NCBI GenBank assembly: GCA_964646765.1
Contig: CAZYIA010000002.1
Location: 12,760-76,759 of the forward strand
Length of the DNA: 64,000 nucleotides
From: an uncultured Candidatus Saccharibacteria bacterium
GTDB taxonomy: Bacteria > Patescibacteriota > Minisyncoccia > Phycocordibacterales > UBA9973
Direction of reading: 5' to 3'
Shown: one piece after another, positions 47,582 to 50,239 of the stretch
How the letters are laid out: each line of letters begins with the position of its first letter
Numbering within the stretch: the first letter of the stretch is position 1
The notes under the pieces: model-generated
What the model saw: only the letters and a program-made list of their open reading frames with translations
Database searches by the model: none
Told to the model about the DNA's origin: nothing
Translations under genes and position numbers: made by a program

Positions 47582-48355
47582 TTATTTTTGTGTGTTCCAC
47601 AATTTTTTAAATACTTCGCGCATGTTGTGGGCTAGCACGGCATCATGAATTTCCACGAGATAAAATGGCCGCTCAACAGTTTGAATAAGAATAATATATG
47701 AGCCAACAATCCAGAGCGTACCAGTTAATTTATTTTCTCCTTTCCAAAATCTGATCTGGCGGCGAGTAAATTTATGACTTTCCATTTGTGACTCAATTTC
47801 TGAATCGTTGGAAAAAAGTTTGAGATCTACTTGTTCCGGTTCGGTTTTCCAAAACCATACGATCCACTCTTTGTAGTGTTCAACAAACGTATGATCCTGG
47901 AAACCCCACCAGGTCATTTCGTTGCTTGCGAATTGGTTTTCTACCCAGCGCGGTGTAGCCTCGTAGAGGTAGTTTTCTAAATCTTCCTCGGTAACAAAGC
48001 GGATTTTAGGAATAGAAAATGTTTTTGATGGTGGGATTAATTTGAGTGCTGTTTTAAGCTCCGTCAGTCCCCGTTCTTTTTCTTCGAGTAGTTTTTTATC
48101 TTTTGAAAGTGCGCGGTCAATTTCACTTTCTTTTGCTGGCAGATAGTAGAGTGTTTTGCCACCTAAGTCTTCAACAATCAATCCACGAGTTTTCAGTTCA
48201 TTGGCTACGCTGTATACAGTAGTTCGGTTGATTCCAGATTTTCGAGAAATAATTGCCGGAGCAATTTTCCCATGCTCAAGAATCATTTTGTATACCGTCT
48301 TTTCTTTTTGTGAGAGTCCTATTTTATCTAGTGCCTTATCAAAGGTGTCTTGCAT
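47582..48355 (-). CDS. TrmB-like winged-helix transcriptional regulator (paralog 1 of 3)
   Basis: N-terminal HTH (LSQKEKTVYKMILEHGKIAPAIISRKSGINRTTVYSVANELKTRGLI). Similar in length and architecture to the ORFs at 55459 and 59649. Confidence 0.6.
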   Translation of the reverse strand: MQDTFDKALDKIGLSQKEKTVYKMILEHGKIAPAIISRKSGINRTTVYSVANELKTRGLIVEDLGGKTLYYLPAKESEIDRALSKDKKLLEEKERGLTELKTALKLIPPSKTFSIPKIRFVTEEDLENYLYEATPRWVENQFASNEMTWWGFQDHTFVEHYKEWIVWFWKTEPEQVDLKLFSNDSEIESQMESHKFTRRQIRFWKGENKLTGTLWIVGSYIILIQTVERPFYLVEIHDAVLAHNMREVFKKLWNTQK

Positions 48356-48372
48356 AACCTTATTTTATATAT

Positions 48373-48394
48373 GTTGTCGAAAACTTGTCAACAG
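48373..48394. promoter_or_regulatory. Putative operator (tgttgtcgaaaacttgtcaaca), sharing ATGTTGTCGAAAA with the 60406-60430 site
   Basis: The 13-nt motif is identical at both TrmB-like / downstream-gene intergenic regions. Confidence 0.5.
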
Positions 48395-48457
48395 ATTTTG
48401 TCTTTATAATTAAATACTTATTGACTTCTAATATAAAAGTGTCAAAATTAAATCAAC

Positions 48458-50239
48458 ATGAATAAACAAACCTGTCAAAATTGCCGTGTGCAGTTTCCTG
48501 TCGATAACGATGATCTTTCATTTTATGAAAAGATGAAAGTGCCGCCGCCAACATTCTGCCCACTTTGCCGAGCACAGCGTCGGCATGCATTTCGTAATGA
48601 ACGAGGACTTTATAAACGAAAGAGCGATTTTTCCGGCAAAGAAATTTTTTCTATGTATGCTCCTGACTCGGGAGTTAAAGTGTACGAGCGTGATGTTTGG
48701 CTTTCTGATGAGTGGGATGCGATGAGTTATGGTCGCGATATTGATTGGAATAAACCGTTTTTGACTCAACTCTACGAGTTGATGCTCGAAGTTCCCTTTA
48801 AAGCGAACAACGTCATTCGTGGTGTCCAAAGTGAGTATTCGAACCATGCCACTGACCCAAAGAACTGTTTCCTTGTTTTCAATGCCACAAATCCGGAAGA
48901 TTCAATGTACTGTAACGGGGTAAATTTTTCGCGTGACTGTGTTGATTGTTCTCATATTTCCAAAACTGAAGGAAGCTATCAGAGTTTTTGGATAACCTCG
49001 TGTTATCGCACACACTATTCTTCTGAATGTGTTGATTCAAGTGATCTATGGTTTTCGCGTGATTGCCAAGGTTGTATGAATTGTTTCGGCTGCGTAAATT
49101 TGCGAAAGAAAAGTTATTGTTTCTTTAATGAACAATTAACAAAAGAAGAGTATGAGAAACGCCTAGCGGAGTATCAGCTTCATACTCGAGAAGGAATTTT
49201 AAAAGCTCAGAAAGAAGCAGCAGAATTTTGGAAAAAATTTCCAAAGAAATATTCGCAGGGAGTGAAAAATATCTACTCATCAGGCTCGTATGTTACCAAT
49301 TCAAAAAACGTTCGCGATTCATATTTAGTGCGTGAGTCCGAAAATTTACGCTACTGCCAGTCAATTCAAGAAACCCCAGGAGCAAAAGATTGTTACGACT
49401 ACAGTATTTGGGGCGACGGTGCTGAGCTTGTATATGAAGCAGGGTCGTGTGGAACTGGTGTCCAAAATATTAAATTTGCACTTCTTACTCAAGAGAACGT
49501 GCACGACACCGAGTACACTATTGGCTGTAGTCAGGGCACTCAAAATGTTTTTGGCTGTGTTGGACTTCGTAAAAAAGAGCATTGCATTTTGAACAAGCAA
49601 TACACTAAAGAAGAATATGAAACCCTTGTTAAAAAAATTAAAAAACACATGGATGATATGCCGTATGTCGACAAAAAAGGTCGCGTGTATAAATACGGCG
49701 AGTACTACCCTATCGAAATGAGTCCATGGGCATATAACGAAACGCTCGCTCAAGAATATTTTCCACTAACCAAAGAGGAAGCTCTTGCTGAAGGATACCG
49801 TTGGCGTGATCCTGATACGAAAAGTTATGTGCCAACCATGAAGGCAGAAGAGATACCAGCGGATATCACTCAAACTCCTGACTCAATTACCAGCGAGGTT
49901 ATTGAATGTGCTCACAAAACTAATTGTAACGACGGTTGCACTAAAGCATTCCGTATAATTCCAGATGAGCTTTCATTTTATCGAAAAATTGGTGTACCAG
50001 TTCCTACGCTGTGTCCCGCATGTCGTACGATGGAACGTTTAACCCTGCGACTAAAGTTTGGACTTTATGATCGAGCATGCATGTGTGGTGGCGCTACAGA
50101 TAAAACTGGGATATATCAAAACCATGTTGAGCATGCACACGGAAATAGTGTGTGTGGAGAAATATTTCAAACTGGTTATACCCTAGAAAGTGGGACCATC
50201 GTGTACTGTGAAAGTTGCTACCAACAAGAAACCGCCTAA
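48458..50239 (+). CDS. Cysteine-rich repeat protein of unknown function (paralog A). Zn-ribbon-like modules at both ends and a duplicated C-x2-C-rich core
   Basis: N-terminus CQNCRVQF…FYEKMKVPPPTFCPLCR. A near-repeat at the C-terminus (CTKAFRIIPDELSFYRKIGVPVPTLCPACR). The internal duplicated block is DCQGCMNCFGCVNLRKKSYCFFNEQLTKEEYE / GCVGLRKKEHCILNKQYTKEEYE. Confidence 0.6.
   Translation: MNKQTCQNCRVQFPVDNDDLSFYEKMKVPPPTFCPLCRAQRRHAFRNERGLYKRKSDFSGKEIFSMYAPDSGVKVYERDVWLSDEWDAMSYGRDIDWNKPFLTQLYELMLEVPFKANNVIRGVQSEYSNHATDPKNCFLVFNATNPEDSMYCNGVNFSRDCVDCSHISKTEGSYQSFWITSCYRTHYSSECVDSSDLWFSRDCQGCMNCFGCVNLRKKSYCFFNEQLTKEEYEKRLAEYQLHTREGILKAQKEAAEFWKKFPKKYSQGVKNIYSSGSYVTNSKNVRDSYLVRESENLRYCQSIQETPGAKDCYDYSIWGDGAELVYEAGSCGTGVQNIKFALLTQENVHDTEYTIGCSQGTQNVFGCVGLRKKEHCILNKQYTKEEYETLVKKIKKHMDDMPYVDKKGRVYKYGEYYPIEMSPWAYNETLAQEYFPLTKEEALAEGYRWRDPDTKSYVPTMKAEEIPADITQTPDSITSEVIECAHKTNCNDGCTKAFRIIPDELSFYRKIGVPVPTLCPACRTMERLTLRLKFGLYDRACMCGGATDKTGIYQNHVEHAHGNSVCGEIFQTGYTLESGTIVYCESCYQQETA

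Follow-up and report, generated by a model that had tools for sequence, protein, structure and literature searches.

We analyzed a stretch of 64,000 nucleotides (nt) of DNA (hereafter, the window) from an uncultured Candidatus Saccharibacteria bacterium (contig CAZYIA010000002.1, positions 12,760 to 76,759 of the forward strand), and in particular two loci that each encode a cysteine (Cys)-rich protein, denoted A at locus 1 (47582-50239) and B at locus 2 (59649-63186), together with a regulator carrying a TrmB-type winged helix. A and B proved to be members of an unannotated protein family that is linked by gene order to VirD4/TraG-like ATPases. The genes and open reading frames (ORFs) at and near the two loci are as follows.

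47582-48355, minus strand: TrmB-like regulator 1 (257 amino acids, aa), with a winged-helix N-terminus and a C-terminal domain of about 170 aa that matched no family.
48458-50239, plus strand: protein A (593 aa), of the zinc-capped double-solenoid family described here.
55465-56223, plus strand: a third TrmB-like paralog (252 aa; PF01978, 46.4 bits), with no family member adjoining.
59649-60398, minus strand: TrmB-like regulator 2 (249 aa; PF01978, 56.7 bits).
60550-61041 (163 aa) and 61093-61275 (60 aa, hydrophobic), plus strand: two small ORFs between regulator 2 and protein B.
61459-63186, plus strand: protein B (575 aa), an ancient paralog of A in which a fourth putative zinc site is kept.
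63320-63952, minus strand: a small gene with a PaaX_M domain (PF20803, 42.8 bits), convergent with B.

Regulator 1 and protein A are divergent and have a 102-nt intergenic region in common, and the gene of A is flanked on its other side by that of a CCA-adding enzyme. At locus 2, the distance from regulator 2 to B is 1,060 nt and includes the two small ORFs, each of which was gene-called on an independent contig as well. The true divergent partner of regulator 2 is the 163-aa ORF and not B, which lies upstream of the PaaX_M-like gene. Family-side genomic context was read from 86 collected loci in which genes were tagged (labels of the type L001). Local gene order in L001 and L171 is largely that of the window, and the A-type copy in L171 has no directly adjoining TrmB-like gene.

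Proteins A and B are 44% identical across their full length (pairwise alignment, E 1e-172). Neither matched a Pfam or NCBIfam family above threshold or a sequence in the PDB, and PDB searches with profiles of the full-length protein, the N-terminal module, and the solenoid returned nothing below E 0.4. A literature search likewise returned nothing relevant on the family, on PF13451, or on tandem zinc-ribbon families in Parcubacteria. A word-indexed search recovered at least 7,992 clusters at 90% identity with A as the query and at least 7,555 with B, and an exhaustive hidden Markov model (HMM) search of 1.84 billion cluster representatives recovered 2,034 clusters at 50% identity (E<1e-30), nearly all of them 550-600 aa long. 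The names supplied by the sources for these proteins were ‘hypothetical’, apart from one label that is considered below.

More than 565 stretches of one-genome-per-species GTDB contigs were matched, and the distribution of the family was read from the 80 of these that were retrieved. These were affiliated with Nomura-, Staskawicz-, Lipton-, Jorgensen-, and Harrisonbacteria, Minisyncoccia, and Paceibacterota or came from generically labeled metagenome-assembled genomes (MAGs). A 2.6-kb contig labeled ‘Aenigmatarchaeota’ among the 80 is probably mis-binned, and the family is restricted to Paceibacteria-type Patescibacteria.

Family members occur in co-directional tandem arrays of 2-6 genes (176 genes in 83 loci), with six in tandem within 9.8 kb in L018, and one MAG has at least seven copies of the 1.7-kb gene. 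The nearest relative of an arrayed gene is in a different genome in 92% of cases, and genes of one array have a median identity of 43%, compared with 60% for genes of different genomes; orthologs across genera are 60-79% identical, and those of B in other genomes 61-89%. Recent amplification or antigenic variation is disfavored, and non-redundant roles are favored, because the closest relatives are mostly found in other genomes. We thus rejected recent tandem duplication and antigenic variation as explanations of the arrays, whose paralogs predate the genera. The family is very large and unannotated, and A and B are two of its ancient paralogs.

The motif C-x2-C...FY-x-K-x2-VP-x-P-T-F-C-P-x-C-R is found at both termini of A and of B, and the N-terminal (residues 7-85) and C-terminal (residues 492-592) modules are homologous to each other (hhalign probability 99%, E 3e-18). 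Between the modules, residues 122-242 are homologous to residues 273-397 (hhalign probability 99%, E 2e-18), which constitutes an internal duplication of about 120 aa, and the repeated block GC..CFGCVNLRKK.YC..N.QYTKEEYE is the tail of this larger duplication. An earlier note on this DNA, made from the sequence alone, had described two paralogous proteins of about 580 aa with terminal modules of this kind and an internally duplicated block, and had not recognized the family. On all three counts it was right: the ORFs lie where it placed them, the modules and the duplication are real, and HMM (Pfam and NCBIfam), PDB sequence, and Foldseek PDB searches gave no passing match. In A, the following elements are arranged from N- to C-terminus, all encoded on the plus strand.

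Residues 1-50 (48458-48607): a treble-clef zinc finger (C6/C9/C34/C37) and then an arginine (Arg)-rich helix (R38/R41/R42/R46/N47).
Residues 51-116 (48608-48805): a degenerate second zinc ribbon, alignable with the C-terminal ribbon in a profile comparison, and a conserved linker helix, W-x2-D-x-WD...D-x4-F-x2-Q.
Residues 117-262 (48806-49243): solenoid R1, of about nine turns of 12 residues, a cap (GC..CFGCVNLRKK.YC.FN.Q.TKEEYE in A), and then a helical hairpin.
Residues 263-400 (49244-49657): solenoid R2, homologous to R1 and with fewer Cys, the cap FGCVGLRKK.YCILNKQYTKEEYE, and a helix.
Residues 401-480 (49658-49897): a conserved acidic segment, YGEFFP.E.SPFAYNET.AQEYFPL.
Residues 481-593 (49898-50236): the second copy of the zinc module, with a treble clef (C484/C494/C519/C522), an Arg helix (R523/R527/R531), and a C-terminal zinc ribbon (C541, C543 or C566, C584, C587).

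The order of these elements (zinc finger with Arg helix and ribbon, solenoid, hairpin, solenoid, acidic segment, zinc module) is fixed. Across family members, basic zinc modules flank an acidic body, with net charges of +2.4 for the N-terminal zinc module, +5.7 for residues 481-535, -6.1 for the acidic segment, and a mean of -6.4 for the whole protein. In an alignment of 125 members, conservation was highest at the ends, the caps, and residues 401-450 (0.57-0.68), with the caps ranking first and 13 of the 50 columns of residues 401-450 at least 80% conserved. The variable regions were the solenoid rungs (0.38-0.44) and the helical hairpin at residues 236-262 (0.36). Both proteins appear to be soluble and cytoplasmic, in that the N-terminus, judged by eye and not with a predictor, has no hydrophobic segment.

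An AlphaFold model computed from 125 representatives with a mutual identity of at most 50% had a predicted local distance difference test (pLDDT) score of 91.1 and a predicted template modeling score of 0.91; a shallower alignment had given a pLDDT of 76. The model comprises zinc-finger-like terminal modules, two solenoids closed by like caps, and the acidic segment, and the strands of the first solenoid recur every 12 residues (129-132, 141-144, ... 219-222). Foldseek searches of the PDB with this model returned only beta-helix proteins, none of them significant (E >=0.17, template modeling scores of 0.06-0.10, root-mean-square deviation of 15-20 Å), those with the earlier model of pLDDT 76 returned noise, and searches of BFVD returned small zinc-ribbon pieces only.

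With the left-handed hexapeptide beta-helix enzymes (GlmU, LpxD, and gamma-carbonic anhydrase) A and B share a repetitive, parallel beta-coil body, but their period is 12 rather than 18 or 20 residues, and they have no acyltransferase or carbonic-anhydrase motif. The antifreeze protein of Tenebrio is a 12-residue Cys-rich beta-helix, and the turns of A and B with their small core of Cys and serine (Ser) recall that fold. Pentapeptide-repeat proteins and bactofilins are other beta-solenoid proteins. Unlike the beta-solenoid proteins named here, A and B are seemingly cytoplasmic, are zinc-fingered, and close each solenoid with a unique cap, LRKK.YC.xNKQYTKEEYE. The terminal modules resemble zf_Tbcl (PF13451) and zf_Tbcl_2 (PF23477), which are described as a ‘probable treble clef’, in the arrangement CxxC...CxxC-R and in the helix past the second knuckle, but they are longer and include the FY-x-K-x2-VP-x-P-T-F stretch, the Arg helix, and a second ribbon. 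Among 32 relatives, weak matches were obtained to zf_Tbcl in 16 and to zf_Tbcl_2 in nine (best E ~1e-4), and precomputed annotations with PF13451 or PF23477 exist for a few database homologs. B scored 16.4 bits against the zf_Tbcl threshold of 24, and A had no match.

Relatives of the solenoid unit were found in viruses. The phage family phrog_15341 was matched by 25 of the 32 members (best E 1.9e-6), and the viral contig L088 (IMGVR_UViG_3300035698_007828) encodes at 4740-5360 (plus strand) a 206-aa protein of 12-residue repeats, NTxSxGLxxSxx, that ends in the cap motif of the family (...KSYMLFNKQYTEKQYEEL). Both are like the family in solenoid unit and cap, but they are short, consist of a single unit, and are without zinc modules. 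The 206-aa protein had no match in Pfam or PHROG and no homolog in a protein database search, and tblastn searches of GenBank phages with R1 and with this protein returned nothing useful.

Family members have 36 Cys on average, and it was from the Cys count that the earlier note had suggested multiple zinc or Fe-S sites. The central Cys are found at positions 3, 6, 9, and 12 of the 12-residue rows and alternate with Ser, valine (Val), isoleucine (Ile), leucine (Leu), or threonine among the 125 relatives; for example, C203 is replaced by Leu in 13, C191 by Ser in 36, and C149 by Ser, Ile, or Val in 48. Moreover, Cys positions differ between R1 and R2, and the R2 counterparts of R1 Cys are Val, asparagine (Asn), or Ser. 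Because they are exchanged for Ser, Val, or Leu in relatives and their positions are not shared between the two solenoids, we read the central Cys as a core ladder, that is, as small residues that would fill the core of a narrow solenoid and not as a set of ligands; obligatory metal ligation by them is unlikely.

The terminal modules differ from the solenoids in this respect, as they alone contain invariant sites of the Cys4 type (three in A and four in B), and the proposal of many metal sites was accordingly not borne out. All four ligands of the N-terminal finger (C6/C9/C34/C37) are Cys in 120 of 125 members, and those of the C-terminal finger (484/494/519/522) are all Cys in at least 87 of 125, as counted from the ten most common ligand patterns. 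At the individual ligand positions of this finger and of the C-terminal ribbon, 66-99% of members have Cys. The second N-terminal ribbon has the ligand pattern CCCC in 53 of 125 members, Cxxx in 48, and none in 24. Since A has lost this ribbon and B has retained it (CELC...CQKC), three zinc sites are probable in A and four in B, in each case confined to the terminal modules.

The most common neighbor of family members is a soluble P-loop ATPase (38 genes in 27 of the 86 family-side loci) that matches the domains TrwB_AAD_bind, T4SS-DNA_transf, and TraG-D_C. Scores for PF10412 were 40.3 and 27.6 bits (cut-off 20.5 bits), and those for PF02534 and PF12696 were also above cut-off. Two forms were distinguished: the longer, of about 700 aa, has a zf_Tbcl_2 finger at its C-terminus and a disordered tail, and the shorter is of about 500 aa. 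These ATPases resemble type IV coupling proteins (T4CPs; VirD4/TraG/TrwB) in carrying a TrwB/TraG NTPase domain, but they are soluble by inspection, and the long form differs further in its zinc finger and disordered tail. By eye, no N-terminal membrane anchor is visible, and the N-terminus of the L005 ATPase is polar. Neither a membrane anchor nor type IV secretion system (T4SS) or relaxase neighbors were found; the neighbors are dnaK, dnaJ, and family members, not virB4.

A reciprocal test was conducted on 80 ATPase loci from independent metagenome contigs that were picked without reference to the family. A family member was present in 48 of these 80 loci and was directly adjacent to 32 of the 56 ATPase genes for which both flanks were visible (>=1.5 kb each). 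The recurrent order is family-family-dnaK-ATPase(~700)-family(1-3)-ATPase(~500)-dnaJ, and the core of this order, dnaK-ATPase-family-ATPase-dnaJ, was found in L090, L091, L093, L096, L100, L101, L102, L105, and L108, among others. dnaK and dnaJ are 4-8 kb apart in the cassette with the family and ATPase genes between them, and a small DUF3467-like ORF is located between dnaK and the ATPase of about 700 aa in L005, L090, L091, L093, L101, L102, L105, and L108. The gene linkage of the family to T4CP-like ATPases and to dnaK/dnaJ is thus reciprocal.

A survey from 2025 counted 5,713 VirD4 homologs in 2,918 Patescibacteria genomes (about two per genome), of which only 148 were near virB4, and suggested that VirD4 homologs may have been exapted for another function, leaving that role open (PMC12102498). 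The ATPase neighbors of the family are the ‘orphan’ VirD4 homologs counted in that survey.

The three TrmB-like proteins of the window are regulators of a known kind. Their winged helices scored 45.6 (regulator 1), 56.7 (regulator 2), and 46.4 bits (third paralog) with PF01978 (cut-off 25.6 bits), in agreement with their earlier designation as TrmB-like. Their scores with the NCBIfam TrmB equivalogs were 15-31 bits (cut-offs 500-650 bits), and neither a C-terminal Pfam match nor the sugar-binding effector domain of TrmB was detected in the regulators. The sole PDB match of regulator 1 was the N-terminal domain of TrmB (E 0.003), and PDB matches span residues 6-71 only. Regulators 1 and 2 are 21% identical, and the third paralog is 30% identical to regulator 2. 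Like TrmB, TrmBL1, and TrmBL2 of Pyrococcus and Thermococcus, the window proteins combine a winged-helix N-terminal domain with palindromic sites at their own promoters, as in dimeric repressors, but the sugar-binding C-terminal domain was undetected, and they are bacterial (Patescibacteria). They have a TrmB-type winged helix and are not orthologs of TrmB.

The 13-mer ATGTTGTCGAAAA, which the earlier note had observed at both loci, has exactly two copies in the window, at 48371-48383 (plus strand) and 60417-60429 (minus strand). With at most one mismatch, 0.34 matches would be expected, and four of 100 shuffles gave two or more. The shared 13-mer looks functional rather than fortuitous. The copies are oppositely oriented and are located 15-18 nt from the start codons of the regulators, not beside the large genes. 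The following elements were predicted around them.

48375-48393: putative operator O1 (TGTCGAAAACTTGTCAACA), an imperfect palindrome, TGTCGA-N7-TCAACA, that holds most of the 13-mer and overlaps the -35 box and spacer of the regulator-1 promoter.
48362-48391, minus strand: predicted regulator-1 promoter of the sigma-70 type, TTGACA-18-TAAAAT (11 of 12 positions matching), with a -10 box that ends 6 nt before the ATG.
48421-48448, plus strand: predicted promoter of protein A, TTGACT-16-TG-CAAAAT.
60409-60425: putative operator O2, a perfect palindrome, TGTCGA-N5-TCGACA, that overlaps the 13-mer and is flanked on one side by the predicted -10 box of regulator 2 (60439-60434) and on the other by its ATG.

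The 13-mer is thus best described as one TGTCGA half-site with its flanks, common to two related but differently spaced predicted operators. The pattern TGTYGR-N7-YCAACA is present beside every trmB1-type gene start (in the window, L001-L004, L008, L021, L027, and L034) and nowhere else in 88 loci, and its sole exact match in the window is O1; as the pattern was derived from those very sites, its absence elsewhere is the informative part. O2 is conserved beside the ortholog of regulator 2 in L001 and is absent from the other 87 loci. The 163-aa ORF of locus 2 has a predicted promoter, GTGACA-17-GATAAT, that is conserved with L001. In the predicted promoters of regulator 1 and of A, the -10 box lies 6-10 nt before the start codon, which implies leaderless or nearly leaderless mRNAs.

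From these predicted sites we infer that the regulators would repress themselves. Self-regulation is supported because the operator stays with the regulator in L027 and L034, where the divergent gene encodes a membrane protein, and because the divergent promoter of locus 2 is that of the small ORF, which regulator 2 may control. Control of A by regulator 1 is possible, since the two share an intergenic region and an operator-like near-match, TGTCAA-N7-TCAACA (48440-48458), overlaps the -10 box of the A promoter and the start codon. Control of B by regulator 2 is unsupported. The wider TrmB-like regulon that had been envisaged did not materialize, as operator patterns in the window occur only at the promoters of the two regulators themselves and in the one unconserved near-match at A.

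The earlier note had gone further and proposed a regulator and target module that was duplicated as a whole, with a regulator divergent to each large gene. In that reading, each TrmB-like repressor would sense a signal and switch on the adjacent Cys-rich protein. The 102-nt divergent layout of locus 1, where this description is accurate, is kept in L001, L002, L003, L004, L008, and L021, three TrmB-like genes adjoin family members in L003, and the operator-like near-match is situated at the A promoter. However, the description fails at locus 2, where regulator 2 and B are separated by two ORFs and it is the small ORF that has the conserved divergent promoter. In addition, the regulators are 21% identical and the large proteins 44% identical, which implies that the pairs were not duplicated as a unit, and in L027 and L034 the operator accompanies the regulator in front of a different divergent partner. 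Across the family, a TrmB-like gene lies within 4 kb of a family member in only nine of 86 loci, all of which are close relatives of A; the pairing is specific to the lineage of the window. We therefore consider a dedicated regulator and target module unlikely. In L003/L004, from a relative of the window genome, a 14-kb stretch encodes four TrmB-like genes, of which three directly adjoin family members, and a further TrmB N-terminal domain is fused to a methyltransferase. TrmB-like regulators seem to be unusually numerous in the lineage of the window.

We favor instead the interpretation that family members serve as adaptors or scaffolds. The constant ends, the caps, and the acidic segment would dock a common partner or ligand, namely nucleic acid via the Arg helices and/or ATPases, and the variable surfaces of the solenoids would give every paralog its own specificity. 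The partners would be the two soluble VirD4/TraG-like ATPases (HerA-FtsK superfamily) that flank the family arrays, and in most other Paceibacteria the setting would be the cassette dnaK - ATPase(~700 aa) - family x1-3 - ATPase(~500 aa) - dnaJ. We hold the package as a whole (an unannotated family of zinc-capped double solenoids, self-repressing regulators, and an adaptor or scaffold role with ATPases) with moderate confidence, and its functional part, the adaptor or scaffold role, with less. A more tentative possibility, which we put forward with some doubt, is that the family, the two orphan ATPases, and possibly DnaK/DnaJ form an unrecognized cytoplasmic machine across Paceibacteria, in which the 5-10 paralogs of a cell, each specialized, would present differing substrates (nucleic acids or proteins) to hexameric ATPases of the translocase type. 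If the model is correct, the fold of such a machine, zinc-finger-capped solenoids with 12 residues per turn, would be new.

Several observations weigh against this interpretation. There is no T4CP-like ATPase in the 64-kb window, and none within 10 kb of the B ortholog in L171, a close relative; therefore, the ATPase link is unseen at these loci in the lineage of the window. Gene order in small genomes could also be inherited rather than selected. The zf_Tbcl_2 finger of the ATPase was compared with the family's own zinc modules, and homology was rejected (hhalign probability <3%). The near-match at the A promoter (48440-48458) is not conserved in L001, L008, and L021 and is uncertain. Lastly, the inward orientation of the central Cys is based on periodicity and substitution patterns and not on measured geometry, and a cluster of six Cys at 191-212 is conserved at 53-93%, which would be compatible with a metal site in R1 alone.

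The docking of nucleic acid might alternatively be the whole function. The proteins would then be stand-alone organizers or chaperones of RNA or DNA that clamp the nucleic acid with their basic zinc-finger ends, use the solenoids as a rigid spacer, and have no strict need of an ATPase. This would fit the treble-clef fingers and the invariant Arg helices that follow them in the basic modules at both ends, the label of one member by the Joint Genome Institute (JGI), ‘Zn ribbon nucleic-acid-binding protein’, and the retention of these proteins without adjacent ATPases in the lineage of the window. However, the protein as a whole is acidic and matches no known nucleic-acid-binding family, and the conserved Arg could be paired with D19, D84, D87, and D96, likewise conserved, in internal salt bridges. 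A function of this kind would also leave 5-10 ancient paralogs per small genome unexplained, and we consider it improbable.

Synteny also admits a role in proteostasis, with the family as a holdase, co-chaperone, or substrate adaptor that is expressed with Hsp70/Hsp40 and the ATPases as unfoldases, as the arrays and both ATPases are situated between dnaK and dnaJ in many independent contigs. Synteny is, however, the sole evidence for such a role. No similarity to a chaperone family was detected, and in the lineage of the window the genes are located away from dnaK. A proteostasis factor appears very unlikely.

The resemblance of the ATPases to coupling proteins raises the further alternative that the family is secreted or translocated cargo (effectors or adhesins) of the patescibacterial T4SS, recruited by VirD4-like coupling proteins. 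Beta-solenoids are frequent in adhesins and phage spikes, the neighbors are T4CP homologs, and the solenoid unit has the phage relatives noted above (phrog_15341 and the 206-aa repeat protein of L088). Yet the N-terminus has, by eye, no signal-like segment, with a zinc finger starting at residue 6, and zinc fingers of the intracellular type are found at both termini. Likewise, paralog-specific conservation is very high, unlike that of effectors or variable surface proteins, and the ATPases, which have no visible membrane anchor, are rarely near virB4 (PMC12102498). We regard translocated cargo as highly improbable.

Finally, a Fe-S or multi-metal redox protein in which the central Cys ligate clusters is extremely doubtful: it would account for the abundance of Cys and for the C-x2-C-x2-C-x2-C run at 203-212, in which the Cys are 78-93% conserved, but many members have Leu, Val, or Ser at those positions, the R2 counterparts are Val, Asn, or Ser, the Cys recur with the 3-residue period of the solenoid turns, and neither an invariant set of Cys ligands in a recognized spacing nor a match to a Fe-S family in Pfam and NCBIfam scans was found. 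A role in anti-phage defense was also considered and was rejected, as PADLOC gave no match for A or B; for the neighboring ATPases it gave only generic HerA and mad8 P-loop matches.

The more interesting result of this analysis lies beyond the two loci themselves, in a Paceibacteria-wide ‘dark matter’ family that is tied to VirD4-like ATPases. A large and conserved family that is unannotated, has no solved relative, and is confidently predicted to adopt an unusual fold represents a clear gap in knowledge. The genomes of Patescibacteria are tiny. The tight reciprocal linkage provides a testable lead on orphan ATPases that a recent survey could not place in type IV secretion and points to a possible tie with the Hsp70 operon; if the machine outlined above exists, it would assign a role to about two unexplained T4CP homologs per patescibacterial genome. 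The regulators are otherwise ordinary, and they contribute two clean candidate pairs of operator and repressor in a phylum with almost no known transcription factor sites.

Other genes were noted near family members. Genes with a PaaX_M domain (Cas2-like fold), such as the one convergent with B, are also near family paralogs in distant genomes (L005 947-1489, L073 6804-7292, and L082 7878-8417), where neighbors were counted as phmmer matches or carriers of the same domain within loci of ±4-6 kb. In three collected loci, family members adjoin a protein of 191-193 aa (L027 3413-3988 and L011 5819-6400) that contains a degenerate P-loop-like motif, HG..RSGAS, and matched nothing in Pfam.

Elsewhere in the window, a run of large ORFs with hydrophobic N-termini (279-15352, minus strand) surrounds a VirB4/TraG-P-loop ATPase (4358-6193; PF19044, 94.6 bits). 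The window has no VirD4-like gene beside this ATPase locus, which probably corresponds to the type IV secretion locus of Patescibacteria described previously (PMC12102498). Three consecutive large ORFs are located at 19975-26876 (minus strand), and two of these carry an FtsK gamma domain, a winged-helix domain that reads DNA motifs, without an FtsK motor domain. The 649-aa ORF between these two matched no family, and the gamma domains span aa 1124-1185 of the 1199-aa ORF at 23277-26876 and aa 69-127 of the 448-aa ORF at 19975-21321.

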